From Psammoneis japonica (Eukaryota), in NCBI GenBank assembly GCA_008632985.1, contig QPGO01000007.1:248001-312000 (forward strand): a stretch of 64,000 nt of DNA, given 5' to 3'. Below are positions 4,870 to 64,000 of the stretch, piece by piece; position 1 is the stretch's first letter; every line of letters begins with the position of its first letter. Position numbers and translations under genes: made by a program. The notes below the pieces were generated by a model. That model searched no databases and was not told where the DNA came from. It was given only the letters and a program-made list of their open reading frames with translations.

Positions 4870-7800
4870 GGGGCGAGAAGCGGTCAATCGCTGCATTTTT
4901 CAGATCACTTGTCCGTTGATTTTCACAGTTGGGGGACCTCTCTGAAAAATTGAAATGTTTCAATCCGATCCACCACGTGAGATTCACACGGCAGAACACA
5001 CCATGACCAACCACCATCAGCCATCAGATGGAGCAAAGCAACCCGTTGAGTGTTGGTGCCGCGTGGCACAGTGGCACACAAGATGACACACAATGCTGCT
5101 GCAAGGAATGGTGAATGGAAAAATGCAGACAAATGCAAAAACACACACCCTTCAAAGACCCCGCACACCAACGTGGGACAATTTTGTGAGAAGCAGAGAG
5201 GGCTCCCTGCTTGAGAAACTTGAGAATGATTTGGTTGCAACATTGTCTTGCTGGAAATGAAGATTGTTTGGCAAGAGAACAGCACAGGCTGAAACTGTGT
5301 CCAGTCGAGCAAACGCTCAATTGATGTGGAGGAACCGCGCGCGGAATCCAAAATGGTTGTTGTGAGTGTTGGCACACCATGGCATCAAAAGAGCCCATCA
5401 TTGCAAGGACAGGAGATTGTCCTGTTGGCTCTTCACGCAGATTCTGTGGAGTGTCATTCATGAGCTGCGGGTGTTTTTCAGCCTTGGCTTTGTGGTTTTG
5501 CATGACCAACAGATCATCTTGATTTGTTTGGAAATGTGCTGCAGTTTCTGCTGGGACATTTGGTCAATGGAAGTTGCCATTCATCTCTGGTGCTTTTTGG
5601 TCTCCTGCAACATCCTCTTTTCTGCTGTGAGCTGGCCCATCCAGCCATCTGCAGTAGGGTTCCTGGTCTTTTTGAATGATTCAAGATGTTTGGAAAGGAC
5701 TCTTTGCTCAGACTTGCAACCAATCCCTTCAGCCAGCCGCAATTCCATTTGGACATCAATGGCCGGCATCTTCCTTGCTTTGTGTGGGCCATCCAGCGGG
5801 GCAGCAACAGCTGTTTGATGCTCACATTCAGAGAGAGGAGGTGGCCCATCTGGATCAAATGAAGCGGCAACAGCTGTGGCAATGTCTTTGGGCACGATGT
5901 CATCAGCTGGCCCATCTGTGGCCAAAACAGCAAAGATGTGAACATCATCTACCACCAGATTGTTGTCTGGGGTCTCTTTGGCTGCACACAATTCCACAGC
6001 AACCTCGCTCAGGTCACTCACCACAATGCAAGAATGAAGACTGCCAGAGTGGACAATTCTCCTGCTGCCATTTCCAGGATCATGTCAAGAACATCTGCCA
6101 CAGGACAAGGAATGACACCAAACTTGCCAACCTCCCAGTCACCAAAACTCTGACTCACCGCCAATCCATTTGTTTCACCCATCACCAGATCTAAGTGCAA
6201 AACACGCATCATGCTGCTGCCACAAGGAATGTGGACGTTGCACTCAGCATGATGGCTGCCACATCCATGCCCACTCATCTGGAGGGTGCGGCTTGTCCTC
6301 TTGACTTTGTTGCACAATGATGGTCTTGCCTGTTTTTTGTGTCAAGCAACAATGAACAACATGCTGTCTCTGGAATTGGCGACATTGTTGTCTTGCTGCC
6401 ATTTTGTAGGATGACCGAAGCAGCAAAGCCAACCGCCTCATCTGCTGGCACTCAATTGATTGTTTGGCCAGTTTTTCAAGTTTGGAAGAGTGCAACTTTG
6501 GAAGATTCACAACAGTGTGCTCTGAAACATGTTTGCTGAGAGTGGCATGTCTGACAAAGCAGGTGATTCATTCTCAAGTGCGTCGCCAACCACCGCCTCC
6601 GAAGCAGGGTCGTCATCAGCTTTTGGGCATTCACGAATGCAAAAGGGTGATGCAACGAAAGCTTGACATCCTGATTGTAATGTCCTTCCACCATTTTGCG
6701 CCCAATCACTGATTTTTTCTTTGAGTCCTGGGCTCTGCCTGCTGGGCCCCACACTTGGGCAAAGGACACGCTGACACGTTGTGCAGTTGTTGCTCCCAAT
6801 GTGAACAAAATCTGCTTTAGATGGCACATGCAATGCGGCCAACAAATCAAGACATTCGCTCAAACAACCACAAATGACCACCAGGTCTTTTCTTGAGCAT
6901 GGCAAAAGTTGTCAGTGATGGACATCAGCCAACCCTGGGGCAACCTGAGTGCAGCAAACACAAGTTGCCGCAAGCTTGATGCAACGCGGTGGTTGAGAAT
7001 GTTTTCTTTTTTTGGTGTCGTAAAAAATCCTTTTTGACTTCTTGAAGCTCGCCAACACCCTTGTTGTCATGGCCATGGTGTTTTTTGCCTGTGGCGCTCC
7101 ACAGCCCACTCGCTAAATTTGTGGCTTGGTGTGGATTGAAACACTTCAATTTTTCAGAGAGGTCCCCCAATTAAAAAAATGATGGACAAGTGATCTGAAA
7201 AATGCAGCACCAAAATCTCACACAACAACATGATGCATCATCAACACATCACACAGCTCTCTTTTGAAAGCAGAGCTGTGCACTTTAACTTGCTGCTTCC
7301 TTCTCCCATCTGTGACATCTGCTTCATTTGTGATGGCAAGCAAAGTGCAGCAGACTGTGGGTTGTGGAGAAAATGCACAATTTAGACTTAACGACCTGAG
7401 TGTTCTTTTCTTTGTTGTTGCTGTCAGGTGTTTCATCATTGGCTTCTCTCAGGATGAATTTTGCCCGGCAATTGTGCATTCCCGGCATCAAACATCTCCT
7501 GGAGTTACAACATGTCAAAGGGATCCAGCAGTGTCACAACTGCAGGTTGATTGAATCTGAGTGGGTTTGGTTGCATGTCTTGTTTGGGTGACACAAAACG
7601 GCTTGCAGTTCTCACAAGCTCGTGTTTCCTGTTGTTGCAGTTTGTGGTTTGGGCAAATCAAAGCAACGCTCTCATGGACTCCATTTTTCATTCATTGCAC
7701 CATTGCCACAGGAAGCATCTTTCAGCCAATGGGTCTGAATTGGGTTGGTTTCAATTGTTGTTTGGGCAAAGCAAAAAGGGGCTCCGCGCTCAGCTCTCAT

Positions 7801-8260
7801 GCGCTTGCACTCTCTGCTTTTTGCGGTTCATGGCTTGGATGGCTGCACATCAAAGAATTGTTGCACTCTCATGGGCTCTGTCATCTGTTTGTTGTGCCAT
7901 TGCCACAGGAAGCATCTGTTGGTTCATTCAACCCAAGTTGCTTGGGTTGCATTGGCTGCAGACAATGGCGTTGTTGCGACAGCCCCCATCCGGACAGCGC
8001 AGGTGTCCCGCACTTTCAAGATTCGTCAACGTGCCATGATGGGAAAAGAGGGAGCCACCAATCGCTGGCATGTGCGCATGCTTTGTGCACTGTCACCCAT
8101 CCATTGTGAACCAGGGACAGTCACACTCACACACAATTGAAGTGGTGAAGAACATCATCTTTTTCACCACAAGCGCAGCTGCAAATTGCAGCAGTCAGGA
8201 ATGTCATCATCTTGTTTCACAACAGGGGTGTCACTCGTTTTGATGCTTCATCAAAGAGAC
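4870..8260. mobile_element. TpA-depleted degenerate repeat domain 1 (probable transposon relics)
   Basis: Only about 13 TA dinucleotides counted in about 3.3 kb; many overlapping Cys/His-rich, Tyr-poor ORFs; internal inverted and direct repeats. Confidence 0.65.
4890..7208. repeat. Imperfect inverted repeat pair of about 77 bp (4890-4966 and 7133-7208) enclosing about 2.2 kb; possible TIRs of a DNA transposon relic
   Basis: gctgcatttttcagatcacttgtcc...ttgggggacctctctgaaaaattgaa.tgtttcaatcc matches the reverse complement of 7133-7208. Confidence 0.75.
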
Positions 8261-8784
8261 GATGTATCCTTTCACGTAAAACTCGGCACGAATTCTGACT
8301 CTAGCCCTAGCAGCTAGAGCAGAGCGTCGTTCGTGCCCCTGTGGGCACGAACTCATTCGGCGTTCGTTCGTGCTCACACGCGCACGACTTATCACGCGGG
8401 CTAATCCCGATGCAGCAACAGATGGACGGTACGATATGGTTCAAAAGACCATCTCTTTGATTGTCGCATTTCTTTTTGGCTTTTTGGGGGTTTTGGTAGA
8501 GGATGATTCAGTTGGCAACTTTGCCGTGTTGTTGGTTTGAAAAAGTGGCATGGTAATGACGTCGTCTGGCCAATGCCTGAACGCCAAACTCGCGAGCCGA
8601 GTCGTGATTGACTTTGACAGCCAACAGCCAACAATAATTGTTGGAAAAAGCCGAAACAAGACAAAAACGAGAACAATAACTCTTCTTCTGTGACTTATTG
8701 TGCTGACACGACGTCAGGGCATCGGCGGAGACGATGAGAAGTCCATAAAACAGAATCACGATTGCACAAACATGAATCCGTCAT

Positions 8785-18871: not shown

Positions 18872-19271
18872 CGTCAAATACCAAAAACAACACTACCACG
18901 TTGTAGTCCAAAAGACAACAATGAGGCCAACGTCAACAACAAACTGGTGCTCTCTCCAACTCACATCAACAACACGCACTGCGTTTGTTCCCACCACGCA
19001 CGCGTTCGAGCGGGCGATGGACAGACAAGAGTAAGCTCAGAACCTGACTGTTACCGCGCGCATTCGGGCGAGATTATCGCGCGCCTCGCAGCGGGTAGCG
19101 CGTTGGCGCAAGGCGCAATAACACGCAACACGCAGTCATCACGAGACAGGAAGACAGCAACAATAAATACCGACCACGGACTCTGTGTTGCGAACATTGT
19201 CAACCACTGTTTGTTCATCCGTTATTACTACTGAAGCATAAGCGGCACCGATAAGGGGAAGTTAGACTAAA

Positions 19272-22440: not shown

Positions 22441-23944
22441 TTAGCCAACCTCCCTGAGGCTGGTTTCAATGATTCCAAGGCATTCATCCATTTCTTGTTC
22501 CGTAATGGTGAGAGGAGGAGCAAAGCGAATAATGTTGCCGTGCGTAGGTTTGGCCAAGAGCCCGTGCTCTGCCATTTTGAGGCAAACCTCCCAAGCCTTG
22601 CCCGTATCGCCATAGCTACTCTTTGGCTGATTAATCACAATGGCATTCAATAGACCGCGTCCACGAACAGATTCAATTGATGTCTCACCAATGAGGCTCT
22701 GCAGACCGTCCCGGAGTTGCTGTCCACGAACTTTGGAGTTCTCGGCGAGTCCCTCTTCACGGAGCACCTCCAAGGCTGCGGTTGCAACCTTGCAGGCAAG
22801 TGGGTTACCACCATAGGTAGAGCCGTGCTCACCGGGTTTGAGTGTTAGCATCACTTCATCCGATGCCAACACTGCAGACACTGGGAGAACTCCGCCAGAA
22901 AGAGCCTAAAAAAGTAGGTAAGCGTGTTCGATGAGAAAAGTGAAAACACACAGTCAAAGAAACAATACACAGTACGCCGCCTTTACTCTCACCTTTCCAA
23001 GAACCACGATATCTGGTTTGCATTCATCATGATCCACGGCCAACTCGTACCCCGTACGGCATAGACCAGTCTGAACCTCATCGGCAATAAGGAGCACATT
23101 GTGCTTGGTACAGAGCTCCTTAGCCTCGGCCATGTACCCGTCATCTGGAACCACCACACCAGCCTCACCCTGAATGGGTTCCACCATGAAGGCGGCAATG
23201 TTTTCTGCATCTTTCGATAGTTCGGATTCGAGTGATCCCAAATCATTAAAGGGCACATGAGAAAAGCCAGGCATGTAAGGTCCAAAGTCCCGAAAGGCGG
23301 TTGGATCGTTGGACGATGACACGGCGGCCAGCGTGCGTCCCCAAAAGTTTTGATTGGCAAACAAGACGCGGGCCTTGTTGCTGGGAATTCCCTTGACCTG
23401 ATAACCCCAGCGACGAGCCAACTTGACCGCCGTCTCGCCGCCCTCGACACCCGTGTTCATGGGCAAGACACGATCGTATCCAAAGTAATTGGTAATGAAT
23501 TCCGTGTAAGGACCGAGGCTGTCGTTGAAAAAGGCACGAGAAGTCAAGGTCAACTTGGGCGCTTGTGTTGTTAACGCTTCGATGATTTTAGGGTGGCAGT
23601 GTCCCTGATTAACAGCGGAATACGCCGACAAGAAATCGTAGTAGCAACGGCCATCGACGTCAAAGACCCGAGTGCCTGTTGAAAAAGCAAGCGAATTAGG
23701 TAGCATCATCTGAGACGAATCAGCTCTGCATTTTTCGATAGGAAATTCACATAATACAATACTTACCCTCTCCTCGGGCAAGAACAACAGGAAGCGGGTG
23801 ATAATTGTGTGCTCCGTACTTATCCTCTAGATTCATGCATTTTGCGGCAGCCTCTGAGGGAACAGGCTCGGATACGGCTGCGGTCGAGAGCCATCGAGCG
23901 GAAACCGCACGACGCCCCAGAAAATGGCGTGTAGCAGTCAACAT
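22441..23944 (-). CDS. OAT: Ornithine aminotransferase (mitochondrial presequence); introns about 22906-22992 and 23676-23766
   Basis: [72 protein letters not shown]. Confidence 0.96.
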
Positions 23945-26204
23945 GTCGTCGATTTAGAGCGAAACTAACAAGTTATCTCAACTTGATGCCAGCCAGACAA
24001 GAACGTTGATATGGGAAAGGATCGTGAAAATGCGATGCGAAGCAAGAAGCAAGCAAAAGAAAAATGTGAGGAGAGATGATGACACGCGTGCGGTCGCGGA
24101 TGACCGGATCTTAGCGGATAACTTACAGACGCACAATTGCCTGATTTTTCATAGAATCCATGAAAAAGTAAAATTCCGAGAAAACGTAATTTTCGGGTGG
24201 ACTGCCATGGCTTTGTTTTCACTGCATCATTTGCCATGGTGGATTTCCATTTTTTTGGCCCCATCTCTTCTGATGAGAGTTTTGGCGACAGCACGACTTG
24301 CCAGAATGTTGCTTTGCTGTCGATCACTTGTGGATTGATGAAGTTGTTCTTTGGCGCAGTGCAACTCAGTCATTTGTTCAGAAGCTTTGTTGGGGAACTG
24401 CCTTTGATGTTTTTTGTCACAAAGACTGATGTGTTGGCCAAGGCTGTGGGCTGGTTGGACACTCTGCTTCATTCCAGACATGGTTGTTGCTTGGTGGGAT
24501 GTCACAGTTGATTTTGTTGTCATGTTTGCAAACTGCAAACCAAGTCTTGGCCATTTCTTCAGTCCTTCTCTTTGTTCTGCTGTTCTGGTCGCCTTTTCTC
24601 TCAGCTGCTCTTTTTTTTTCTTGACAACCATTGCACTGGTCATCAGGAGGGGAGGGTGACACACATCTGAGATGGGGAGCACACTCCCTTGTGTTGGACA
24701 GACTGGCATGGACAGCATGGAGAGATCCGAGACGATCCTCTCTCCCTTTGCTCACTTTCTTTCTTATCCAGTGCGCTCATTGTCGCACCCATCCTGGACA
24801 CCGCCCCAGCGACGAGCCAACTTGACCGCCGTCTCGCCGCCCTCGACACCCGTGTTCATGGGCAAGACACGATCGCATCCAAAGCAATTGGAAATGAATT
24901 CCGTGCAAGGACCGAGGCTGTCGTTGAAAAAGGCACGAGAAGTCAAGGTCAACTTGGGCGCTTGTGTTGTTGACGCTTCGATGATTTTAGGGTGGCAGTG
25001 TCCCTGATTAACAGCGGAGTGCGCCGACAAGAAATCGCAGCAGCAATGGCCATCGACGTCAAAGACCCGAGTGCCTGTTGAAAAAGCAAGCGAATTGGGT
25101 GGCATCATCTGAGACGAATCAGCTCTGCATTTTTCGATCGGAAATTCACACAACGCAACACTCACCCTCTCCTCGGGCAAGAACAACAGGAAGCGGGTGA
25201 CAATTGTGTGCTCCGTACTTGTCCTCTAGATTCATGCATTTTGCGGCAGCCTCTGAGGGAACAGGCTCGGATGCGGCTGCGGTCGAGAGCCATCGAGCGG
25301 AAACCGCACGATGCCCCAGAAAATGGCATGTGGCAGTCAACATGTCGTCGATTTAGAGCGAAACTAACAAGTTGTCTCAACTTGATGCCTGCCAAACAAG
25401 AACGTTGACATGGGAAAGGATCGTGAAAATGCGATGCGAAGCAAGAAGCAAGCAAAAGAAAAATGTGAGGAGAGATGATGACACGCGTGCGGTCGCGGAT
25501 GACCGGATCTCAGCGGATGACTTACAGACGCACAATTGCCTGATTTTTCATAGAATCCATGAAAAAGTAAAATTCCAAGAAAACGTAATTTTCGGGTGGA
25601 CTGCCATGGCTTTGTTTTCACTGCATCATTTGCCATGGTGGATTTCCATTTTTTTGGCCCCATCTCTTCTGATGAGAGTTTTGGTGACAGCACAACTTGC
25701 CAGAATGTTGCTTTGCTGTCGATCACTTGTGGATTGATGAAGTTGTTCTTTGGCGCAGTGCAACTCAGTCATTTGTTCAGAAGCTTTGTTGGGGAACTGC
25801 CTTTGATGTTTTTTGTCACAAAGACTGATGTGTTGGCCAAGGCTGTGGGCTGGTTGGACACTCTGCTTCATTCCAGACATGTGGTTGTTGCTTGGTGGGA
25901 TGTCACAGTTGATTTTGTTGTCATGTTTGCAAACTGCAAACCAAGTCTTGGCCATTTCTTCAGTCCTTCTCTTTGTTCTGCTGTTCTGGTCGCCTTTTCT
26001 CTCAGCTGTTCTTTTTTTTTCTTGACAACCATTGCACTGGTCATCAGGAGGGGAGGGTGACACACATCTGAGATGGGGAGCACACTCCCTTGTGTTGGAC
26101 AGACTGGCATGGACAGCATGGAGAGATCCGAGACGATCCTCTCTCCCTTTGCTCACTTTCTTTCTCATCCAGTGCGCTCATTGTCGCACCCATCCTGGAC
26201 ACCG
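23405..26204. repeat. Head-to-tail tandem duplication: unit 1 23405-24803, unit 2 24804-26204
   Basis: Direct alignment with offset 1399-1401; about 35 substitutions and one 2 bp indel. Confidence 0.97.
24804..25343 (-). pseudogene. OAT: Truncated duplicate of the OAT 5' half, hypermutated at TpA (Tyr to Cys/His)
   Basis: [11 protein letters not shown] becomes HCCCDFLSAHS; NYH becomes [16 protein letters not shown] becomes PCTEFISNCFGCD; homology ends at 24804. Confidence 0.95.
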
Positions 26205-26905
26205 TTGGATCATCCCGATGTCACCAGCCCACAATGATTGAATGTGCTCATTCTTCCCTTTGACCCATCTCATGAGCAGAGCACAGTGTGTCATTTTTTC
26301 CCTTCTTGTTGTGTCCTCGTGTGGCCACAAATGCAAACCACAAGAGCTCCAGAGCAGAGACGCATCCAGGTCCAGGTGGGGGACCTCGCACTGCTGAACT
26401 GTGACATCAACAGTTTTTTGAATTGTGTTGCATGTTGCACACGCACATTTCTGCATGATTTTGGCAACATTTTGTGTCATCTTGCAGTGCAGTTGTTGGG
26501 CGACACATTCAACAACTTTTGACATTTTTTCTTCCACGCCATTCTCAAATGTCTCAATGATGGTGTGTTGGGCAGTCGGACCATCCAAAACTTTGAGCAG
26601 GCACAGAGGCACATGTGCCACAAACTTGGTTGTTTGTTTCATGTCAAAGATGAATGTGTCCATTGAGCAGAGTGCGAACTGCAGAGCTTGCGCGTGGAAT
26701 TCTGCGGGGCAAATGTCACAAAAAGTCCCACCCAGAGGGCTGGAGCACGTCAGCAAAGGCCAAGACAAAAATGGAGCCCCATGTGAGCAACATGAACATG
26801 TGTGGTTTGATGGTGAAGTTCATTTTTCCCTTGCTCCACCACAAGGGGGCGCTTTGTGTTGATGTGTGGATGCATCCATGGCGGTTGTGTCCCCCGGCAG
26901 TGGCG

Positions 26906-26958
26906 TGGCTGGCTGGCTCGCTGGCTGGCTGGCTCGCTGGCTGGCTGGCTTGCTGGCT
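26906..26958 (+). repeat. Imperfect (GGCT)n tetranucleotide microsatellite
   Basis: ggctggctggctcgctggctggctggctcgctggctggctggcttgctggct. Confidence 0.9.
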
Positions 26959-38532: not shown

Positions 38533-38562
38533 AACCTGTGAAGATTGCTAATTCTTAACTCA

Positions 38563-41806: not shown

Positions 41807-42689
41807 GGTGCTCTTACGGAAACTACAGCACTTCTAATCAGTGAAACACCGCACTGATTGTGGATCTGATCTCTGACGCCTGTGGCTTTTTCTCGGCAGA
41901 TATAATAATTGGGTTGCGTTATCGTCCCGCTCTATAGCACCAATACGATGTTGAACTTGAAGCAGAACGACGAAGTGATGTTGTGATGAGCTATTGCGAT
42001 GCGTTGTTGCCACGATTGAAACCTTGCGCCAAAGCGCGCGAACAGTGGCGGGCGTGTCGAAAGCATGTATGAGGCTACGACTAGCATAAACGTACCTGTT
42101 ATACCGGTCAGACATTTTGTATTGGATTTTATGTACCCCTTTATTTAACGATAACGGTTATTGCCAAAACAAATAGCAGGTTTTACATGTGTATCATATA
42201 CAAATGTCTCACAAAAGTCCATACCTTTCAACTATTTAAATGTTTTTGTAGATGTTACACATTCAACCGTCGATACTCCGTTTGTCAACTCCGTCTTTGA
42301 ATAATACTTCATATATGCTCGTATGTTTGATTAAATTGCGTGGCGGGCGTGGGCATGACCTTCATTTGAATTCGTACTTAGAAAGAGTCATTCTATGTAT
42401 TGCCTCAGCATTTTCTTCGTTAAGTGCGTAGAACAGTACAAATCTTACGCAAAAAGTCATATGCAGTCATTCAACATTCTTGTATATTCGTCATTAATAA
42501 ATCATATCAATGTTTTTTATATGTCAATGATTATATCATATTGCATTTTATGCTAGTCGAAGCCCCATACCGGTATGCGCATGCACGCCATGCAATGCAC
42601 GCAGGAAGAGCGCAACGCATGCACGTCTTCGGCCTGCCCTCAGCCCGATCGTCAATCGTCACGAGTGTGCTGGACTTTGCGTTCGTTAC

Positions 42690-44700
42690 GAACGTGAAAT
42701 CCAAGACTCTGCTTGCATCCATCAAGCAGGGCAAGGCAGCACATGTGCAGCATGGGTTCAAGGTCACAGAGACACATGTGGGCAGGCAGTTTGAGCCTCT
42801 TTCTTGGGTGGGGTGCCAGCCATCGGAAGCACGCACTCTTGACCTGGGTGCTGCCTCACACCTGAAAGGGGCAATTTGGGCCTGGCCAAATCGAACAATG
42901 CAGGTCCATCAATGCAACCATTTTTTCATTCTTCCTGAACATCCTTTCCCATCCATGGTTGAATCTGTTGGGTGGTGTCAATTTGCAACTTGTTGCTGAG
43001 TGCGAAGCTCAACATCACGCCCGGGAGCCACAGTCCGAGGTTTTTGATGTTGCCATCATCTTTGTCCATCTGCAGCTGATTGCAGTTGTCTTCTGGTGTT
43101 CCTTCTTTGCTGCGCATGCCCTCCCAGAGTGTCTTTTGACCAAACTTCATCACACTTGTCTGCACACCCTTGCTCTCAATCTCTGCTCATGACTGCACTT
43201 TCCCAACTCTTGGAGCCTCTCCAGCCCTTGCTTGTTCCAACTGTGATTGCTTTTTGCTTGCTTTCCTTTCCCCATGCTGTGCTTTGCATTGAGAGCAAGC
43301 CCTTTCAATCTGTTCTCCTTCAGCTCTTCCATTGTTTTGCCACACATGTGGGCCCACTTGCTCCCGTTGTTCTCCAACACAGGCAGACACAATGCCTTGT
43401 TGCCCGCAGATGCCAACTTGTTCAAGCAATGTCTCAATTTGAGCCAATGATTCCATGTTGTTTTCCCAACCACAGTTGGCAGGAAGTGGCACAGGTGAAA
43501 TGGCTTTGGGCCTTTGTGTTGCTCTCCTCCTCTCCAGCATTTCCTCCAGAGATGGTGTCTTGTTGTTTTGTCGAAATGGCAGCCAGTCCATCCAAAGGAT
43601 TGTCAACATCAACATTGGAAACATGCAGCAAAGAAAAAACAACAGCCAGGAGAGACTTTGCTTTTTTTCTTTGTGTTTGTGTTGTCTGGGTTGTTGTTGT
43701 CAAACAAAAGTTTTCTGGGAGAAAACCAAGGAGCATCTTTGACTTGCTTGACACAGTCAGTCAGAAAGTCTGACAAATGCAGAAAGCACAATGGGATTGT
43801 CCGCTGGGTGCACATGACTGATGAGCACACCTGTGAAAGTGCAGCTGCAGTTCTTGCACATGCCCAGTGACTGATGATTGGTGCCAGTGGAGGAAGAAGA
43901 AGTGGTGGTGGTGGCTGCAACAGACGAGTCTTTGTCGTGTGTGCTCAAAACATGCAACAACAAATCAGCAGGCATTTTGCCTGCTTTCTTTGACAGCACC
44001 TAAAAATCCAATCAATCAATGACAGGGTGGATGTTGTTTGCAATGCAAAGGCTGTCATTGTGATTGTTTTGCTTGGGAGCAACTTGTGGGCTGCCCCTCT
44101 CACCTTGAGAGTGCTGATGAGCCAGACGTGAACGAACGGCGCTGCACACACAAGGAAACAAGAGGCCACGCTGGTGCAATGTTGAGCCTTGGCATCAGCG
44201 CTTGGACCAGTGGCTTGTCCAAACAGCAAAAGCTCAGTGCAAGGAGCTCCACAAAGAGTTGGAGCTGGTGACAGCCACAAGTGCGCACACAATGCCGACA
44301 CACAGATGTTGTGGACAGGAAGGTTCATGGAGAGCCAGGGGCACAAGAAAGCAAAGAACAACATTTTGTTTCAGGGCAAGAAGCTCAATGTGAGGAGATC
44401 CACAGAGTTGGAGCTGGTGTTGGTCATGTGCATCACCGGCTGCGCTGCAGCACACACAGCTCTGTTGTGGATGCAGGAAGGCTCGCGGAGAGTCGCCAGG
44501 GGCACAAGAAAGCAAAGAAATGGAGAAGAATGGTTGGCAGATAATTTCAAGCTCCAAGTGCTGGCAGACCACTCTGCCAAGGTGCTTCAAGGCCTGCTGT
44601 TCAGCCACATGGTTTGGGCCTCTAGAGAGAGAGTAGAAACCAGATCATGGGCAGGTGTGGCTCTGTGGAAAATGCACGAGGGATCTTTTTCGCCATTGCA
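42690..44700. mobile_element. TpA-depleted degenerate repeat domain 3
   Basis: TA nearly absent over about 2 kb; minus-strand relic ORF with LPVLENN...W...SWNKQGLERLQEL; diverged internal tandem duplication. Confidence 0.55.
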
Positions 44701-45258
44701 AGATTCCACATTCCCTTTGTTCGCAAAGATTTTCGGTCACATTATCGCACACTTATTCACACCAACACGGAATCGTAGATTCCCTGCCACCGCCTCGGCT
44801 TGGCTACAACCCCGATGACATGGCACAGTGCAAGCTACCGAATGGACGCAACAATCAATACACGAATATAACTAATGTATAACACATATACGAGCACATA
44901 TATTCGTGTGATGCTGCTGAGATAGTAGCTAGAAAATGGGGGAACAAATCTACGGATCTAAATCCGTCCATTTTGTTCCCCAGCACTGTGTGAACAGAGG
45001 GCGGTGTGGGTGGGAATTTTCAGCGTTGTTGGCCCATATCGGGACATCGCAACTGATCCCATTGCTACCGATCGTCTGCCAAGAACAATGAGGGGAACAT
45101 GGGAGGCCTCTCGTCGTTCGTCGTCGTCCGTCGTCTGTCCATCCACCTTCGACTGCGCGCTACTATCGCGCGGTGACTCCTCCAAGAGCGCGACCGCCCA
45201 CAAGGTATCCTCTCCTTGTGCTTGGCCTACCGTCTTGGCCTCGAAACAAAAAACAACA

Positions 45259-53531: not shown

Positions 53532-54383
53532 AATGCAGTCATTAGGATTACTCAGTAAAATCTTATTATTAATCTAGCTGAAGCATTACTGTACTGTAGC
53601 ACTCACAATCTCAGTAAGAACTTGTATACAGTACGAAGACAACTACCTCAAAAAGAATTTATCTTCTAGTTTCGCTCGGTGCAGCGCTTCGTTATATCTT
53701 AGACCTAGAAACAGGCTGACGAAACAGTTGAAATTAAATTGCGATGGGTGACGGATAGAGCGACAGAGAGAGGGAGGAAGGCGGCGATTTCTTGAGTTGG
53801 ACATGCACAAATACGACGCCAGAAAACTGTAGAATAGAACTAGATCGAGAGTTCTAACTGCCAATAAATGCCACGCTTCGCCCTGATGCCCTCTACTGTA
53901 TGCTCTCTCTAGAGAGAGTAGCTAGCTCGCATCGAGAATGACCTTGGAAGAAGTGGTAAGTGGTGTACAGCAGAATGACAATAGTGAGTAGTTTTGTGTG
54001 CTTCAAAGACGCACGAAAAAAAGTAAGCAAGTAAGTTCAGCGTAAAGGAACCGATAAAAGGACATGTGAATAGAAGTAAGAGAATGCACAGTGCCCTCAC
54101 ATCAAACATACATAGCATCCGTGAACAGATCAGACAACGCACTAGTACAGTACCGACAACACTGCTGTACACTGTAAGGATTCCAATGATTGATTTTATA
54201 AAGACTTTGTGAAGTGGCCCAGAGCTGCATGATCCACTGTTCAAAGGTCTCGTCCATCATTTCTGTGCCACCTCTTTCTCTTCAACAGCTGCATTTCTCC
54301 CATCCATGACATTGCCAGTGAACTTCTGTCTCTTGATCTGTTTGTCTCTGTTGGGGCAAACAAAGACCGCCTTGTGAGGTCTC

Positions 54384-54834
54384 TCACATGTTGTGATGTC
54401 GTCGGGGTCCTTCTTGGTTGGAACTAAAGGATCTTGATGCGCAAATGTGTTCTTCTTCCGGAAAAAGGCTTGACACAGCTGTTGCGGTCACGTTTCTTAT
54501 GTCTTCTAACCACTGTAATCCCTTTGCTGCTGTTCCACTGTTCAAGGGCAGCCGCTTTCCCCCAATCATGCCATGTCGCTGCCAATGCGAAGAGTGCTTT
54601 GCCCAAGATGTCTTTTGCTCCTTGCCTTCTTCAAGCTCCAAAGACATGAAAAAATCACAAACCGCAACTCCCATCTTCGATTTGTCAACAAAAAGCAAGT
54701 CACCCGAATCTTTGCGAAACATGCACTGTGTGCACTCGTCTTGAAACGTCTCAGGGCTCTCCCCATCGAGTTCAACCTCATGCGGATTGTGCACCAACTT
54801 CCCAATGACTGGTTGAAGATCCTTGTTCTCACCC
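54384..54834 (-). pseudogene. 3' part of the DUF3990-like gene split by the Copia element
   Basis: GENKDLQPVIGKLVHN continues in frame from NREDRIYKG on the far side of the element. Confidence 0.7.
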
Positions 54835-55298
54835 AGTCGTGGTTCGTCTGTCCACCAACCCAGATTCTCTGTTGTGTCTGTACTTCCGTCAGTCGGAATT
54901 CTCATTGAAATTCTTTTCGCGCCACGTCAATCAAGCCGAATGCTTTGGGGATCACAGGCGGTGCTTTGGAGATCACAGGCTTCGCACAGATGTTGGACCA
55001 ACCACAGATTGGTTCAGCAGCACTTGGATGATTGTTGTGAATGTGGTTGAACCTGAAGTTTGCACTGGTCTCTAGCACAAACCTGCGGATCAACCTCTGT
55101 TTGGGTGCATTCAGCAGATTCAGTCTAGGTGGCTCACAATTTGGTCACTGGCACTTTTGTGAAAGACCAAATGCTCGTCACCACTTGTTGGTGGATTCCA
55201 TCTGCTTGTGTTCTGTCTGAGGCATCGATCTGGAGTGGACATCCAGTTGACACGTTGGGAAGGCACTCGGAGCTTGCGCGGACACGCGAGCTTCGACT
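54835..55298 (+). repeat. 5' LTR (464 bp), termini AGTCG...CGACT
   Basis: Direct repeat of 62128-62599. Confidence 0.93.
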
Positions 55299-55634
55299 GG
55301 TCAGTTCGCCCAATTGGGGCAACTTAACACGTTCTACGCTTCTGGTTGGGGACGCCCAAACCAGGGCAACCCTGTCAACAGCTCTGATGCCGTCAGTGCT
55401 CCTCATCAACTGTGCTCCACGCTCTTGATGTCAAGTGCTGCGACTGACTCCGTCAGCTGAGTGGCTGGTTCTGCCAGAAGGTTTGTTGTTGATTTTGCAC
55501 GTGCACCATCTCAGGTCCTGCTCCACCCCGTGGCCCTCCTGAGACCCAAGAGAGTTCTCCGAGCTTGCACTCTTTGATTGAGAACGTCCCAGACGATTGG
55601 TCCGACTCGACAGCTTCAAGCGCGCTGTCGGACA

Positions 55635-58600
55635 TGGCTGACGACCCCGAAGTGTTCGAGGATCAGCCTCCTGAGGATCAACCTCCACCGGGGGATGATC
55701 CACCACCTCAGGACCCTGACGACCCAGACGACGAGCCTGTTCCGCCCTTGGAACATCGCCCGGACGATTCGGATGACAACTCGGATGATGATGATGACAA
55801 GCCCACTGCAGGCTCTGGCATGTCGGAAGACGAGCGTCGCACTGTTCAGGCCATGGCTGCCATGGCAGCCATGGCGATGCCGAAGACGAAAGTCCACAAA
55901 CCCAAGGCTCCTAAGATGGGGGGGTTGTCTCCATTGGTTCTGCTGAGAAAGTTGCTTAGACCGGTGGGAAACCCAAGGCTGACTGGCCCAGATTGGAAAC
56001 TCCCAACTCCAGTCCAACGTCACCAAACCAGCGTCACTCCCACCACGTTTCTTCCACCCAGAAGAGCAAGGCCCACCGCGTTGCCAGACTTTCAACCAAG
56101 TTTGACAAGAAGGGAGATCTTGCAACCTTTGAGAAGAACGTGATGAAGCATCTCAAGGACTGCGGTTTGGATGCGGCAACTTACCCACAGGACCCCGAGG
56201 ACTCAACTTCTGTGACGTCTTGTGTTGAAGGACATCCTCGGTGTTCCAAATCGAGTGTCACCCGTCTTGTCGCACCTCAACTCGCCAAGTGTGACTCCTG
56301 CGATTCATCCAATGACAGGGATGCTGCTGAGTTTCTCAAGAACTCCTTGGAGGCTGGCCCAGTCGCACAGCTGGATCTGGAGACGGAAGAGTCGGATTGC
56401 TTTCCGAAAGTCTGGATGGCTCTCGTCGTGATCCTCCAGAGCACGTCCATCGAACGCTTCAAGCAGCTCGAAAAGCAGCTGGAGGAACTCAAGCCCTCCC
56501 ATTTCGCCGGTCAGGATCTCTCCCAGCTCCTGTCCAAGTTCAAGACTGCGGCCCAAGAGTTAGATGTTGCGGGTCAGCACGACCACAAGCTGACGCTCAC
56601 CTTGGTCAACGCTTGCCTGGAAGCTGGCGGGGATGGCGAAAATGGTCAGCAGTTCAAGCACGCCCTTCGCACTGTGAAAGAGAATTTGAGCGAAGCACTT
56701 GTTGAGATAGCGTGCAAGTCTAAGACGGACGCGAAACGATGCCTTGCGTCCAAGAACCTCACCTGCTCTCAAGTCATTGGGAAGATCCTGGACCGCTGCC
56801 GCTTGTTCAAGAACAACACGCAGTGGGATCCCATCAAGCACGCGACAGACTCCAAAGCCGCTCCTGGAGCCTTTGGAAACCCAGTGCTTGATCCCTCAGC
56901 CACTTGTCAAACGGTTGGAGTTCCACTCACTCAGGCCCAGTTCAATGCTCTCTTCCAGCAGACGGCTGCTCCCCGCAAGAAGACTCCGGAAAACTCTCCA
57001 TGCAACAACTGCGGGAAGCTCGGACACTGGGCACGTGACTGTCCCAACAAGTCTGGTGAGGGTGCTGGCAACAACCAAGGCGCTCAAACCCTGGGCACAA
57101 CGGTGGAGGACAAGGAGGAAGGGGCAGGAACCGCTCCGGTGGCAACGGGAGTCAAGGTGGCAATGGAGGCAACGGCAATGGTGGCGTCGCGCGCAACTGG
57201 AAGAAGGTCGTGCCTCGTCCCGGACAACCTGAGTCCAAGGTTGCTCAGGGCAAGACTTGGCACTGGTGTGCCAAGTGCCGTCGTTGGTCGACCACTCACG
57301 GTGCTGCCAAGCATGGGCAGAAGGATGAGTCACCTCCTGCACCAACTCAGCAGGCCAACACCCTCTTCCTGGATCCTGGAGCGTGGCACGCGGAATTCTA
57401 CTTTGAGTTGGGATTCAAGGACATGCTGCTTGGACTGTTTCAGGTTGTGCTCACCTTGATCCACCCTTTTGCATCTCCGCTGCTCTATGCCACCTTGGGA
57501 TGTTGGCATTCTCAGCTTCTGGCCAACTGGCAGATTGCTGGAGTCAACGCCATGATCTGGTTCATGACGGTTGTTGCGTCGCACGTCTCGTCACATTGGC
57601 ATCTCTATCCTTTGCCCGCCATCTGGTTCCTTCTGCTTCTAGCGGCTGTCTTCTTGCCGTCTAAGTTTGAGCGTGATGCTCGTGCCAAAGCCCTGCATGC
57701 TCCTCCTCCACCCCCTCCTCCCCGCTGGGCCACACGCCAAGGAACCAAGTTCTCTGAGCGCCTCGAACGTTGGGGGCATCGTCGCCTGTGATGGGAGCTT
57801 CAGCCTCGCTGCGGACGCCACCGTGCTCCACCCAGGCATCCCTCTCTCGTCCAACGTGCCCGTGGGGCGCCCAACATCAAGCAGCGGCAGCGCAATCAGT
57901 TGTGTGACCTCAGTGAAGAGGTCAAGGCCTTCGAGCGGTCACTCACCTTCACGCGTGCACGTCCTCTCCTCTGTCGAGAGGGAGAAGCCGGTCGTCCCAA
58001 GGGCACCAGACATCACAAGAGCACCACTCTAAAAAAGGGGTCCCGACGTTCATCATCGAGGTTGTCGGACGCATTGCCCTGTTGGTTCAAATGCTGTGCA
58101 CGGTTTGACGCGCTCCCAGCTTGACGCCATCTGCTCCCCAGCAGCCAAGGCTTGTCTTGCCAATGCTGACGTCCCGTCACCTCTACTTTCTGTTGCCAGT
58201 GCTCTCAAAGCGGCGTTCACGAGTCCCAAGGAGACAAAGGAAGTGGTCAAAGAGCACACCTTCCCGGTCATTTGGGACTCAGGAGCAAGCGCATCGGTCT
58301 CACCTTGCAAGGACGACTTCGTCGGGCCTCTCGAGAAACCACCTGTCGCCACCCGGCTCCAAGGTGTCGCAAAGGGCCTCCATGTGGCAGGCATTGGACA
58401 CGTTGCTTGGTCTTTTGTTGATGTTGCTGGGGTGCTTCGGACCCTGAAGGTTCCGGCCTGCTGTGTTCCCAAGTCCAAGGCTCATCTCTTGAGCACGACC
58501 AGTCTCTTGCAGACGCACTCGGATGAGTCCATCGAACTGCCATCGGACCACACCATCCTCAGTGGATCCCAGAATTACAAACAAGGACACAGGCAAGGTG

Positions 58601-61600
58601 TTGAAGTGTTGATTGAACCTTCAACTAACCCACCGGTTGGGTGGGCCTGCGCGAATCAAGCAAGTCAACAAATTTGTGAGGAGTTTCATTTGACGTTGTC
58701 GACGATTGTGGAACACAGTCACAACATCTCACCTGCTGAAAAGGAGCTGCTACATTGGCACTTTCGTCTCAGGCATCTGAGCTTTCAAAAGGTGCAATTT
58801 TTGATGCATGCAGGAGTTCCACCCCACTCCGAGGGCACCTGTCCTTTGCATGAACACGCTTGTCGTATCGATCGTCTGCCCCTTTGTGCCGCATGCCAAC
58901 ATGGAAAACAAAAACGCCGTCCTGGCCCCAGAAAGACTTCTCGTGTCGTCAAAGATCAAGCTGGTGCCTTGAAGAAGGACCAACCATTCCCCGGTCAACG
59001 AGTTTCGGTTGATCATTTTGTTTGCTCCACTCGTGGTCGTCTGAAACATGCTTTTGGAAAGGAGAGCATGTGACATCAGTGTTCGGGCAGAGCAATCTTT
59101 GTGGATCATGCATCCGGTCACATCAACGTTCAACATCGAACTCACCTTAACACCAATGAAACTTTGACGGCCAAGAACGCGTTTGAGGCCCATTGTCGCG
59201 ATTGTGGCATTGTTCCCCAAGAACATCTGAGCGACAATGGAAAGGCGTTCACGTCGGCCAATTTCAGGGTTCACTTGGAATCTTTTGCTCAAGTTTCAAA
59301 GCATGCCGGTGTGGGAGCTCACCATCACAATGGGGTTTGTGAACAAGCAATGCACACTGCGATGTCGATTGCGAGAAGTGTGATGTTGCACGCGGCGATC
59401 CATTGGCCTGATGTTGCGGACGCTGCTCTTTGGCCTTTGGCTGTGGACCACGCTGTTGTGCTTTGCAACGCGATGCCAGACCCATCTGCGGGTCTAAGTC
59501 CACAGGATGTGTTCACCCAGACGCGCAATCCTCACTCTCGGTTCCAGGATTGTCATGTTTGGGGGTGCCCTGTTTACGTTCTTGACAAAGCCCTCGCCGA
59601 TGGAAAGAAACTGCCAAAGTGGAAACCCCGCGCGAGTCGGCATGTCCATGTGGGACTCAGCCCCGAGCATGCCTCGTCAGTCCCGCCAGTCTTGAGTCTT
59701 GAAACGGGAGCCATCACTCCACAATTCCATGTCGTTTTTGATGATTGGTTTGCGACGGTTCCTGCTGATGCTAGCTTGTCACCTGCCATGGGGTCTCCGG
59801 AATGGACGTCTCTTTTCAGAGACAGTGTGTGTCAACACACCATGGATGATGAAGAGCAGGCTGATGTCGACATCCGTCAAGAACACCCAGAATGTGAGCG
59901 CCGATCCGAGGAAATCCGCGAAACCGTCACCCGCCGGTCGCCTCCCAAACCCTTGCAGGTCCCTCCTCCAGCTGCTCAGGCACCAGTGTCTTCTCCCGAG
60001 GCCCCCTCGAGTCCCATTGTGGAACCCCCGGTCCCTGAGGTGGAGTCTGTGCCTCCATTAGAGTCTCCTGCTGAACCCGTGGCTTCAGACTCGCCTCAGA
60101 GGGAGAGAGCACCCGCTGCCAACTCAAATGCCCCACCAAGTCCTCAGAGGGAGCCTCCTGCCCCTCGAAGTCTTTCTTTGGATCTCGGTCAAGAGAGGGA
60201 GTCACCACCTGTGGCTCCACCCAGCGCACAACGCCCCTCTCCAACCCCAGTTCATCGCTCAACCCGGACTCGCGCTGCGCCCCAGCGGTTTGGACATGAT
60301 GGATCTCAGGGACACGGACACTTGTCTCACTTCGTTGATTTCCATTGTGCACACAAGTTTGACCGCAGTTGCAACACATCCATGACTGCTCCTGCCGCAC
60401 ACAAGGCGTTGGCACGCAAAGTCAAGGATCCAGGTGCGCCATCCTGGGACGAGGCCATGCGCTCTTCCGATCGCAACAAGTGGTTAAAAGTGGCTGAGAT
60501 CGAGGAACGTGGGTCAAGGTGCCTGCATCCGATGCTCAAACCAAGATCCTTCCCGGCACTTGGGTGTTTCATCGCAAGCAATCACCTTCAGGCGAGATCA
60601 AGAAATGCAAGGCTCGCTGCTGTTGTCGCGGCAAATCTGCAGGAAGGAAGTCTGTTTGACACTCATGCACCGGTTGTAGCCTGGAGTGCGGTTCAAGCAT
60701 TTTTGGCATTGAGTCTCATTCTTGGATGGCATGCGGCATCCGCCGATTTCCAGTCCGCATTCGTTCAAGCAGTGCTTCCTGCGGAAGAACCAGTTTGGGC
60801 TCATCTTCCACGAGGTTTCAGCTCGATGAAAGGACCCAAGACTTGTCTTGAGCTCGTCAAGAGTCTCTGTGGACTCTCTTCGGCTCCAAAGTTGTGGCAC
60901 GAACATTGTCTGCAAGCCTTCTTGGACTTGGGTTTCATCCAAAGCGAGTGCGACCAATGTCTCCTGCTTTGCCATGATTGCACGGTCTGCCTGCATGCCA
61001 ACGATTGCGGGATCAGTGCAGCGCAGGAGTCCACCATTGATCAGTTGACATTTCAGCTGCGCGAGAAAGGATTTGAATTGACAAAGGAGGGCAGTTTTGC
61101 CGAGTTCTTGGGTGTCAAGTTCGAAAGGAGAGACGACGGCACTGTCAAGTTGACGCAGAAAGGGTTGATTGACAAGATCCTGTCAGCTGCCGGCTTGGTT
61201 GACAGCAAACCAAACTTGCTCCCTGCGGCGTCCCAAGCCCTTGGCACTGATGCGGACGGAGATCCCATGCAGGAGGACTGGAGCTGTCCCTCCGTCATTG
61301 GAATGCTCCTGTGCTTGTCCACCAATGCCCGTCCTGACATTTCCCTCGCCGTCAGTCAGGTTGCATGCTTCAATTCCAACCCGAACAGTCGCGCGCCACT
61401 GCCGTCAAGACTCTGGTCTGCTGCCTGAAAAGGACGCGTGATCAGGGGATGCTGCTGTCTCCAACCAGTCGTTTGGATCTTGATTTATGGGTTGATGCCG
61501 ATTTTGCTGGTCTCTGTTGCTGCAAAGTGGACTCTGATCCGAATTCTGTGAGGTCATGCACCGGATGCATCACAACTCTCAGTGGATGTCCTTTGGTGTG

Positions 61601-61980
61601 GAAATCGCAGCTCCAGTCGGCTGTTTCCTGCTCCACCCTTGAAGCCGAGTGTCAAGCCGCCTCCTGTGCTCTTTGGACTCTCCCACCTTGAAGAACCTGC
61701 TTCTTGAGATCGTCTTCACCTCAGACATCTCCCAAGATCTCAGGACTTCGGTTCGTGCGCGCATGTTCGAAGACAATCAAGGCGCTCACTGCCTGGCTGC
61801 CAACCACCGCATCACCAATCGCACCAAGCATTTTCTCGTCAAGTGGCATTGGTTCTGGTTGCATTGTGATGAGTTTAATGCGATTAAGGTGGAATCGGCG
61901 GAGCAACTCGCCGATCATCTTACCAAGCCTTTGACTCGAGAGCTCTTCCAGAACAACTGGTTGAAGGTCCAAGGGTGGTG
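55635..61980 (+). pseudogene. Degenerate gag-pol polyprotein with frameshifts and Tyr-to-Cys/His substitutions
   Basis: CNNCGKLGHWARDC; protease IWDSGAS; WHFRLRH...CAAC; integrase VSVDH, SDNG, NGVCE; VWGCPVYVLD; RT KSLCGL and CLHAND; RNase H VDADFAG, FEDNQGA, QLADHLTK. Confidence 0.93.
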
Positions 61981-62118
61981 GCACTTTGGAAGCATCGCTT
62001 CCTTTGTTTGTTGCATGTTGTGGCTCGGTCAAGATGCAGGAGCTTTGCTCTGAACTTGCACCAATTGTGTGAGCTTTCTCGTTTGCGATTTTCTTGTTGG
62101 TTGCTGGAATCTGTGAAT

Positions 62119-62127
62119 GAGAGGGAG
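62119..62127 (+). other. Polypurine tract
   Basis: gagagggag immediately 5' of the 3' LTR. Confidence 0.8.
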
Positions 62128-62599
62128 AGTCGTGGTTCATCTGTCCACCGACCCAGATTCTCTGTTGTGTCTGTGCTTCCGTCAGTCGGAATTCTTGTTG
62201 AAATTCTTTTTGCGCCACGTCGACTTGATTCTCAAGCCGAATGCTTTGGGGATCACAGGTGGTGCTTTGGAGATCACAGGCTTTGCACAGATGTTGGACC
62301 AACCATAGATTGGTTCAGCAGCATTTGGATGATTGTTGTGAATGTGGTTGACCCTGAAGTTTGTGCCAGTCTCCAGTGCAAACCTGCGGATCAACCTCTG
62401 TTTGGGTGCATTCAGCAGATTCAGTCTAAACAGCTTGCAATTTGGTCATTGGCACTTTTGTGAAAGACCAAATGCTCGTTGCTGCTCGTCAGTAGATTCC
62501 ATCTGCTTGTGTTCTGTCTGAGGTGTCGATCTGGAGTGGACATCCAGTCGACACGTTAGGAAGGCACTCGGAGCTTGCGCGGACACGCGAGCTTCGACT
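62128..62599 (+). repeat. 3' LTR (472 bp), termini AGTCG...CGACT
   Basis: Direct repeat of 54835-55298 with an 8 bp indel and many transitions. Confidence 0.93.
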
Positions 62600-63758
62600 C
62601 ACCTTTGTAAATGCGATCTTCTCGATTGTTCAGACAAGCAGTCATCCATTCCTCCCATTGGTCCCCCTTAACATGAAGCTTCGACAGACTTTCGAAATCC
62701 TCTTCCTGTGCATCGAAGTGCATGAGAGAAGCAGATTGTCGTCCAACGCCATTTTCAAGGGCGCTCAAATTAGCGAAGCGGATGCATGTCCTTGTCGTGT
62801 CGGAACAATGGAGTCCACCCCCAAAGTCGCCAATGGGTTGGAATCGATTCGCAATGATCCCGAACTCGATGAGATTCTTCATCGATGCAGTGTCTGCCCC
62901 ATGAAACAAGCGTCGGTGGCCTGGGGGGACAGGTCGTGTGGCGAGCCATCGTTCAACATGCGTGAGAAGCTCTTGGACGTAGTTTGGTTCATTGTGAGTG
63001 AATTCTTTTTGGGCATCCTCAAAGGATGTGGCGATGCATTGAAGCGAGACGTCATGAAAGTTGCTCATGGGCTTCTCATTGCTTGCTTCATCGTCGTCTT
63101 CTGCTGCTGCAACACAAGCACGGCGGCGTCCTGCATTGATCACAATCCATTTCTTCGCAACATTGGCAATGACAATGCAACCATCAAAGCACTCCTTGTG
63201 ATCATCTGCCAGCCAAAAGAGATCAAGAGTTGCCCAGTTTCTCCTGAAGCCCCATGCAAGAAGACACTCAGATGGCATCAGTTCAGGTTTCAAGCTTGAC
63301 AACGAAATCCGTTTCAATGCCAACTTCGACAAGGCAATTTGGGAAAACATTTTGCTGCCACGACACAGAATCTTGCATCCGCCAAATGCTGTTTCCAATT
63401 TTCCTGGTCCATTGACAACAAAATTTGATGTGCCAGATGAAAAGGAGTTGCTGAGAGGGGAAAGGACGGGACGCGAAGGGGAAGGGACTGAAGGGACTGA
63501 TGCAACAGTCATGTTGTTCGGGGTTGAGACCATGGTGCAGACGCACACGCACGTGTGGCGGCCACTCTCCATCGTGAGTCCATGCGTCGACCGCACACTC
63601 TCGGAGATGTCAGGCGGACGATGCACCAGGGTCGTATGCAGAAGATTTGTCACGCTGCTCTTGCGGATTTGGCTCAACGCTCTACAGAGCTTTCTACACA
63701 ACACATGCCTGAAAATGTGCCGATCTGACGATGATCGATTTTGCCGTCCCATCAACAC
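62600..63758 (-). pseudogene. 5' part of a DUF3990-like (ADP-ribosyltransferase fold) gene, TpA-depleted and split by the Copia element; true start uncertain
   Basis: RLFHGAD...GI...DFGGGLHCS, resembling the LYHG(T/S)...DFGxGFYxT pattern. Confidence 0.6.
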
Positions 63759-64000
63759 CCAATGTCATGCACGGTCCAGTGCTCATTCGGATGCACCCTG
63801 TTGAGCGGAGAAAATTCGCAAATGTTTGATTGATTTGTGTCCCCGAGACTGAACGAGTGCAAAATCTTCACTTTCTCTCTCAGTGCTGACATGCATCGTT
63901 GATCATTGTCATGTGTTCAGCTCCGTTGCACCTTGCAAGTGCACATGTTTCTTTTCAATGTTTCTTTGCAATGGTGTTGTCTTTCTTGCAACTGAACTGT

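Follow-up and report, generated by a model that had tools for sequence, protein, structure and literature searches.

The 64-kb stretch of Psammoneis japonica DNA analysed here (assembly GCA_008632985.1, contig QPGO01000007.1, positions 248,001 to 312,000; hereafter the window, with positions counted from its first letter) is probably a gene-dense piece of a diatom genome that carries four dead blocks of mobile or foreign DNA, with the conversion of the dinucleotide TpA into CpA or TpG confined to these blocks. The loss of TpA is mutational: it is an A:T to G:C transition that happened at the level of DNA, after insertion, and is restricted to the blocks. A sequence-only reading had described four domains nearly devoid of TA and rich in CA and TG, and this description is borne out. 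The observed/expected dinucleotide ratio (o/e) of TA is 0.03-0.09 in the blocks (D1 to D4, Table 1) and 0.57 in the remaining 45 kb (the rest), and CA and TG stand at 1.41-1.88 in the blocks compared with 1.15 and 1.18 in the rest. The TA o/e of the window as a whole is 0.44. The analysis covers this one window, and all associations between blocks and transposable elements (TEs) rest on it.

How deep is the depletion and where does it stop? The earlier count of 13 TA in the 3.3 kb of D1 was reproduced, and the expectation is about 228 from base composition or 130 from the window's own TA level. Measured against the latter level, the TA counts of the blocks have Poisson probabilities between 1e-26 and 7e-74. 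The reverse step, AT, is unchanged (o/e 0.74-0.93 in the blocks, 0.91 in the rest) and TC is not depleted (0.97-1.22 in the blocks). A smooth unimodal distribution of TpA had been held to speak against a fossil map of mutated domains; over 128 non-overlapping 500-bp windows the TA o/e of these 64 kb is bimodal, with 37 windows below 0.25, three at 0.25-0.30 and a main mode at 0.4-0.7. The nearest TA outside the blocks lie at 4867 and 8265 for D1, 24187 and 27975 for D2, 42687 and 44743 for D3, and 54199 for D4, which on its other side reaches the window end. The edges are resolved to about 25-60 bp; they are as sharp as had been said and tighter than the 100-300 bp first given for the transitions. 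Runs free of TA reach 1372 bp within the blocks and do not exceed 226 bp anywhere else in the window. The steps that are missing can be set against those in excess: the deficit of TA and CG together compares with the surplus of CA and TG as 237 to 257 in D1, 223 to 215 in D2 and 162 to 148 in D3, with a looser balance in D4 (447 to 313). D2 is heterogeneous: the gene fragment at 24804-25588 has been mutated only in part, retaining 10 TA and a normal CpG content. Three sequencing runs of one sample, from one study, are on record, among them the two compared here (X1 and X2). Contigs of X1, which are of the k-mer type, match TpA-free sequence exactly at 42541-43435, 43607-44617 and 53985-54864; X1 is possibly the window's own source, and its agreement does not count as independent support. 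Locally in the blocks CA rises far above TG (o/e 2.1-2.4 and 1.4-1.6, respectively, at 7501-8250, 24251-24750 and 25751-26750), for which either the original composition or some local preference of the mutator for one strand could be responsible.

A natural experiment at the left edge of D2 tells how TpA was lost. A tandem duplication (23405-24803 and 24804-26204; 97.5% identical, 35 differences over 1399 aligned bases) has produced two versions of the 5' half of an ornithine aminotransferase (OAT) gene. Copy A belongs to the working gene, whose product matches human OAT with an E value of 4e-102, and copy B is the same gene fragment sitting between two TA-free stretches of D2. The segment duplicated along with the fragment was already free of TA, and because its two versions differ at so few positions (Table 1) the duplication must be young. 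No obvious repeat was seen at the junction (24803/24804). What has happened to copy B since then? In its 785-bp gene-derived part, 23 of the 33 TA have changed, 11 to CA, 9 to TG and one each to CG, AA and TC. Changes at CG are limited to 4 of 59, every one to TG or CA, and those at other bases to 3 of 601. No TA has been gained in this part relative to copy A, and all 10 TA kept in copy B are also present in copy A. The loss of 23 of 33 TA in one copy and none of 33 in the other gives a Fisher P of 5e-10, and the working gene, only 1.4 kb away, shows no loss of TA. Tyrosine (Tyr) codons reveal the direction of change. All six in the main exon are altered in copy B (five to Cys, one to His), as are two of the three in the first exon; at four of the six main-exon positions human OAT also has Tyr, and therefore copy A is ancestral and copy B derived. 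The two strands are hit about equally, with 11 T>C (CA) and 9 A>G (TG) changes, and a hand count of strand runs in copy B showed no significant clustering (10 runs, 12.5 expected).

The degenerate Ty1/copia retrotransposon in D4 provides a second record. Its assignment follows from a pair of long terminal repeats (LTRs; 464 and 472 bp), a 5-bp target duplication (the flanking repeats read CACCC and CACCT) and the domain order zinc knuckle, integrase, RVT_2. The gag-pol region is broken into four open reading frames (ORFs) with Pfam matches to zf-CCHC (E 6e-08), gag_pre-integrs (E 2e-07) and RVT_2 (E 2e-20), and rve falls below its cut-off. All named relatives of the polymerase are from diatoms (Cylindrotheca, Fragilaria, Epithemia). 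The LTRs of a retrotransposon are identical at integration. Those found here are 91.8% identical over 464 aligned bases, and most of the 38 differing positions are CG or TA sites: at nine dinucleotide sites one LTR has CA where its partner has TG, eight sites pair CG with TG or CA, and five pair TA with TG or CA. At each CA/TG site an ancestral CG or TA was hit independently in the two LTRs. Since the two LTRs started out identical and yet differ at TA and CG, the change came after integration. Neither the CA/TG asymmetry between the LTRs (P 0.07) nor the choice of the mutated base at one-sided LTR sites (8 against 4, P 0.39) is significant. The coding region has suffered in the same way. Tyr makes up 0.1% of the polymerase, compared with 2.6% in 19 aligned relatives; nine of the ten conserved Tyr columns are altered (four to His, four to Cys, one to Ala), and the motifs YVDD, SLYGL and MLLYLS have become HAND, SLCGL and MLLCLS. 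None of the 120 copia relatives listed is free of Tyr, their minimum being 0.89%. The element sits in older DNA which is also TA-poor (54200-54834 and 62600-64000). The X2 contigs have zero cover over the copia interior and over D3, which has no bearing on expression. The evidence for a TE is firm for D4 and moderate for D1, where 77-bp terminal inverted repeats (TIRs) bound an element. D1 is likely of mobile origin; no recognisable transposase was found in the TIR element (4890..7208), after which the block continues with about 1 kb more of TA-free DNA.

What are the properties of the mutational process? In the duplicate, the number of hits is 1.19 per TA site (-ln(10/33)), 0.07 per CG site and 0.005 per other base. 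The loss of TA is therefore about 17 times as fast per site as the decay of CpG. Relative to the background per base the factor is about 240, rising to about 480 when the background changes are shared out between both copies; these ratios derive from one duplicate pair with three background changes and carry a several-fold uncertainty. The flanking bases matter. With Y for pyrimidine and R for purine, the TA surviving in the blocks are 42 YTAR, 21 YTAY, 16 RTAR and 4 RTAY, and those in the rest of the window number 295, 463, 479 and 525; relative survival is 0.142, 0.045, 0.033 and 0.008, respectively, a 19-fold range (chi-square P 2e-16). The duplicate behaves alike, with 3 of 8 YTAR lost and 20 of 25 of all other TA (P 0.036). 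The mutator prefers RTAY, then RTAR or YTAY, then YTAR, and the half-site R-T-A is T-A-Y on the opposite strand. TA is erased first and CpG later: the gene fragment keeps 30% of its TA and 93% of its CG, and the TA and CpG o/e are 0.09 and 0.71 in the copia element and 0.03 and 0.24 in D3. The slower decay of CpG to TpG or CpA in the same blocks (CpG o/e 0.24-0.71, with CG changed to TG or CA in both the LTRs and the duplicate) is of the kind expected from cytosine methylation. With TpA mutation and CpG decay together, both self-complementary pyrimidine-purine steps drain into CA and TG. Decay of methylated CpG accounts for only about half the excess of CA and TG and leaves the loss of TA entirely unexplained. 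Diatom TEs are CpG-methylated and many diatoms have DNMT4, an enzyme related to RID; the available part of that source holds nothing on TpA (PMC9998398).

Table 1. Position and dinucleotide content of the TpA-poor blocks, and the features found in and beside them.
Feature	Coordinates	Strand	Length (bp)	TA	TA o/e	CpG o/e	Remarks
D1	4868..8264		3391 as counted	13	0.06	0.37	
D2	24188..27974			18	0.07	0.54	10 of the TA inside the gene fragment
D3	42688..44742			4	0.03	0.24	
D4	54200..64000		9801	48	0.09	0.71	reaches window end
Rest of window					0.57	0.99	
TIR-bounded element in D1	4890..7208						arms 4890-4966 and 7133-7208, 77 bp, about 90% complementary
Copy A	23405..24189	-		33			promoter and 5' half of working ornithine aminotransferase gene; ends exactly at the D2 edge
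Copy B	24804..25588	-					duplicated 5' fragment inside D2; Aminotran_3 E 5e-24
TpA-free segment duplicated with the gene fragment	24190..24803						twin 25589-26204, 4 differences in 614 bp
Degenerate Ty1/copia LTR retrotransposon	54835..62599	+					LTRs 54835-55298 and 62128-62599
388-codon open frame in older TpA-poor DNA	62601..63764	-					weak DUF3990 / PARP-type ADP-ribosyltransferase-like likeness

Is there a precedent for such a process? Mutation-accumulation lines of Bigelowiella natans offer one (Mettrop et al., bioRxiv 10.64898/2026.01.13.699255, 2026), and what follows on this alga is taken from the available part of that preprint. Two regions of integrated viral DNA account for 231 of the 302 nuclear point mutations in these lines, and 230 of these 231 are A>G or T>C changes, each of them at TpA. 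Per site and generation this amounts to about 6e-7, compared with 3.5e-10. Only some of the lines had the mutations, and the targets were giant-virus and virophage DNA, one of the two regions being single-copy (10.64898/2026.01.13.699255). In the genome at large, TpA-poor windows rich in CpA and TpG cluster, and reverse transcriptase and DDE domains are over-represented among coding sequences with low TpA; adenine deamination is proposed, with an ADAT2-like candidate (10.64898/2026.01.13.699255). The likeness to the diatom window is close: mutation at TpA only, CpA and TpG as products on either strand, confinement to certain regions, a rate far above the background and a long-term depletion of TpA with gain of CpA and TpG. 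The diatom window likewise has mutations almost only on TpA, TpG and CpA as products, and discrete regions, within its single 64 kb. There are differences too. The host is a chlorarachniophyte, a rhizarian, in one case and a diatom, a stramenopile, in the other; the targets are viral inserts there, and the recognisable ones here are an LTR retrotransposon, a TIR element and a host-gene fragment. Erasure is near-complete in the diatom blocks (o/e 0.03-0.09), whereas Rho is 0.45 in the B. natans virus region. The rate was measured directly in B. natans and is deduced from one duplicate in the diatom (about 240-480 times the background). To the known picture the diatom window adds the parallel decay of CpG, the preference for RTAY over YTAR and edges sharp to tens of bases; the available preprint text makes no mention of diatoms, stramenopiles or CpG and gives no extended sequence context (10.64898/2026.01.13.699255). 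This preprint is the sole report of TpA hypermutation that we found, with none for diatoms or for transposon blocks, in a literature search that did not cover subscription journals. Within the literature searched, neither a diatom nor a transposon case precedes ours.

Repeat-induced point mutation (RIP) of fungi is the other obvious comparison. Both processes are irreversible, dinucleotide-specific transition hypermutations which kill mobile DNA and leave a footprint that can be used as a detector. RIP changes C:G to T:A at CpA and so creates TpA, whereas the diatom process changes A:T to G:C and destroys TpA. To our knowledge RIP occurs in fungi only. Could a RIP-like process, in which pairing reveals the duplicates and TpA takes the place of CpA as the mutated step, be at work in the diatom? 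Several observations point this way. The copia family has many diverged copies, as 1748 X1 contigs were placed at a likeness of at least 80%; the summed X1 depth is 640-1844 over the copia element and about 60 over neighbouring genes, a depth that is not a copy number; and the mutated aminotransferase fragment is itself a duplicate. Diatoms as a group also carry DNMT4 enzymes related to the RID of fungi (PMC9998398). The tandem pair makes such a process unlikely all the same. RIP needs a duplication, mutates both copies when they are linked, and leaks into flanking DNA. Of the two tandem copies in the window, just one has been mutated and the other is untouched, and TpA was erased with no TA gained in copy B, a direction of change opposite to that of RIP. 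D3 and 54200-54834 are covered by exact X1 contigs at a depth of 36-67, with no sign of many copies, contig depth being used solely as a weak hint of copy number. In B. natans, moreover, the giant-virus target is single-copy (10.64898/2026.01.13.699255).

Could the blocks be an artefact of base calling or assembly, with modified bases (5-methylcytosine at CpG, a modified T or A at TpA) misread as CA or TG? A symmetric modification of a palindromic step that is misread on either strand would give CA and TG at about 50:50 and would also produce the observed LTR sites at which CA faces TG, and the sequencing platform is not on record. Such an error is nevertheless very improbable. X1 contigs of up to 5653 bp agree with the window save for 0-3 letters, the 894-bp and 1011-bp contigs of D3 do so with none, and k-mer contigs of this kind need accurate reads. 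The copia element has frame breaks and changes at non-TA positions as well, and 10 of the 33 TA of copy B are read normally. In B. natans the signature came from Illumina reads (10.64898/2026.01.13.699255). We give very little credence to a genome-wide bias that destroys TA everywhere and is visible only where selection is absent. In its favour are the TA o/e of 0.57 even outside the blocks, the compactness of the genome with little unconstrained DNA, and the TA-poor non-coding sequences outside the blocks, namely three of eight intergenic spacers sampled (TA o/e 0.46, 0.55 and 0.67) and an intron (0.59) whose splicing is confirmed by a contig. The other five spacers have a TA o/e of 0.90-1.08, and a genome-wide bias of such strength could not coexist with them. 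Copy B has lost 70% of its TA at 0.5% divergence elsewhere, too fast for selection to maintain TA in the remaining genome, and the bimodal distribution and the sharp edges do not fit such a bias either. Editing of the element's RNA before integration (ADAR-like A-to-I change on double-stranded RNA), for which one could cite that copia replicates via RNA and that A>G with a preferred 5' U resembles ADAR (10.64898/2026.01.13.699255), or an avoidance of TA intrinsic to the element, is scarcely credible, as the LTR pair differs mostly at TA and CG sites though identical at integration, the host-gene fragment with its promoter and the TIR element are mutated too, a TA-free coding sequence cannot encode Tyr, and the active site of the reverse transcriptase is destroyed.

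Some observations weigh against our reading of post-insertional mutation confined to dead mobile or foreign DNA. The sequence-only reading had found repeat or TE evidence in every domain, which holds for D4 and, more moderately, for D1; none was found in D3 and in most of D2 by Pfam, self-BLAST or terminal-repeat alignment. A Pfam scan of 83 open frames of at least 70 amino acids from D1-D3 and the D4 flanks returned only the aminotransferase fragment above the cut-off, self-BLAST between blocks gave no shared similarity, and in an alignment that tolerates transitions D2, D3 and 7209-8264 had no terminal repeats above shuffled controls. For D3 no coding domain, terminal repeat or similarity to other blocks was found, and an open frame in it with a best Atlas score of 0.81 is uninformative. 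The polarity of change in D1-D3 outside the gene fragment is something we infer from the mass balance only. The TA-poor spacers and the intron count here too. In copy B, the four TA nearest the TA-free junction (25523-25586) all survive despite an overall loss of 70%, and this is not predicted by simple spreading from the TA-free segment; they lie in the former promoter copy, and one may speculate that it stays protected. Selection on the working gene could be part of the reason why copy A has kept its TA, and the 245 non-coding bp of this copy hold only 10 TA, too few to settle this question. The rate ratios are built on only three background differences. Finally, no TpA-free stretch was found in 73 environmental loci with a related copia element, where the TA o/e is 0.34-0.88 per locus and falls to no less than 0.18 in any 1-kb window, and where TA is absent over at most 335 bp in a row. 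Erased copies were largely excluded there by design, because both search peptides could hold Tyr and one always does. A correlation across these loci between TA and CA+TG (r = -0.45) was not used, as it is possibly a compositional constraint.

What does the process look like? It acts on resident DNA after insertion, on either strand about equally, and mutates any sequence lying within a block, a host-gene fragment included, but ceases a few tens of bases from the edge at most. The inactivation of elements is irreversible: Tyr codons do not survive, and the catalytic motif of the reverse transcriptase is destroyed. Regarding the target, we infer that what guides the process is the silent state of a block, be it chromatin or methylation, and not sequence homology, because only the embedded copy of the tandem pair was mutated and because D3 and 54200-54834, apparently low-copy, were also erased. 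The spared twin, 1.4 kb from the mutated fragment, argues for targeting by position or chromatin state in the same way. The idea that TpA o/e is a fossil map of chromatin domains hit by a mutator therefore survives in part: mutational origin in place, and confinement to sharply bounded blocks of silent or foreign DNA, are supported by the duplicate, the LTRs and the Tyr codons, the part played by chromatin is putative, and the TE association comes from a single 64-kb window. Nothing in the data identifies the enzyme, and the chemistries that follow are candidates. Enzymatic deamination of adenine to inosine at 5'-TA might, by analogy with B. natans, be the route; we place it first among the candidates and regard it as plausible though short of probable. 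TadA-type enzymes favour a UAC context, which the TAY preference in the blocks resembles. Oxidation of thymine at TpA by an enzyme of the TET/JBP type, followed by mispairing, is the chief alternative and a more doubtful candidate, and other options, for example a repair bias, take up the remainder. Dinoflagellates have 5-hydroxymethyluracil (5hmU), made by TET/JBP enzymes, which is enriched on TEs and silences them, and older work quoted in the same source placed it preferentially at TA and TC (PMC11572971). No mutational outcome is reported in the available part of that source and TC is not depleted in the diatom blocks; 5hmU serves as candidate chemistry only. ADAR and APOBEC share with the diatom process the hypermutation of invaders, by deaminases, with a 5' U favoured by ADAR (10.64898/2026.01.13.699255). 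Their substrates are RNA or replication intermediates, edited ahead of integration, whereas the diatom process acts on resident DNA, afterwards and on both strands. ADARs are animal enzymes. A broader proposal, which we put forward tentatively, is that TpA erasure may be an ancient genome defence common at least to algae of the SAR group (stramenopiles, alveolates and rhizarians), namely diatoms and chlorarachniophytes: a DNA adenine deaminase or other base modifier directed at TpA, aimed by silent chromatin, with a TAY/RTA flank preference, and forming the A:T mirror image of RIP.

Targeted hypermutation of invading DNA was previously known from RIP in fungi and from animal deaminases, and its TpA form was first reported in 2026, from viral inserts in one chlorarachniophyte. 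The signature on diatom transposons, far more complete than on those inserts, suggests a process of wide occurrence in a major group of ocean algae, one that apparently keeps not only viruses but also mobile elements in check. If a SAR-wide defence proves true, TpA o/e would be a sequence-only map of long-term silent chromatin in those genomes, and the diatom, where erasure is nearly total and the edges are sharp, would be the best system in which to find the enzyme and the rule of targeting. TpA o/e, read together with the surplus of CA and TG, offers an inexpensive way to mark silenced foreign DNA. The annotation-free detector that had been suggested would work for such blocks, since TpA o/e is bimodal. 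The blocks also hold a warning for annotators: with TGA as almost the only stop codon left, long spurious open frames arise in them. The 388-codon frame next to the copia element (62601-63764) could be of this sort, or a decayed mobile-element gene; its Pfam likeness has an E value of 0.0025, below the curated cut-off, and its Atlas score of 0.92, with mostly cnidarian clusters, is a lead only.

A few further observations concern D2 and D3. D2 contains a (TGGC)n microsatellite of about 14 units at 26901-26958 and a 112-bp palindrome. Around D3, the stretches 40746-40930 and 41845-41938 on the left match the continuous stretch 46487-46762 on the right with 77-80% identity, which suggests paralogous genes or an old segmental duplication around the block.

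Outside the blocks, 10 of the 14 long ORFs carry ordinary eukaryotic domains, among them fumarase, PNPase-type RNase PH, HSF, SGT1/ecdysoneless, Ofd1 and signal peptidase. The matches listed for fumarase include 120 relatives at 71-82% identity, and all those named by organism are diatoms (including Nitzschia, Seminavis, Cylindrotheca, Leptocylindrus, Mayamaea and Grammatophora); none of the matches listed for fumarase or for the copia polymerase is near-identical. By its proteins the source therefore reads as a diatom that lacks a close sequenced relative in the collections searched. No tRNA genes were found in the window. The ORF at 17426-18877 (minus strand) has RNase PH and PNPase domains of the polynucleotide phosphorylase type and probably serves an organelle; it is shorter than a full PNPase and is therefore probably interrupted by introns. 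Contigs of X2 skip 53076-53257 and 47817-47900, and the first skip is bounded by GT..AG (joint 53075-53258), so that X2 behaves like a transcriptome, though listed as 'DNA?'. These skips mark introns of the flanking genes.

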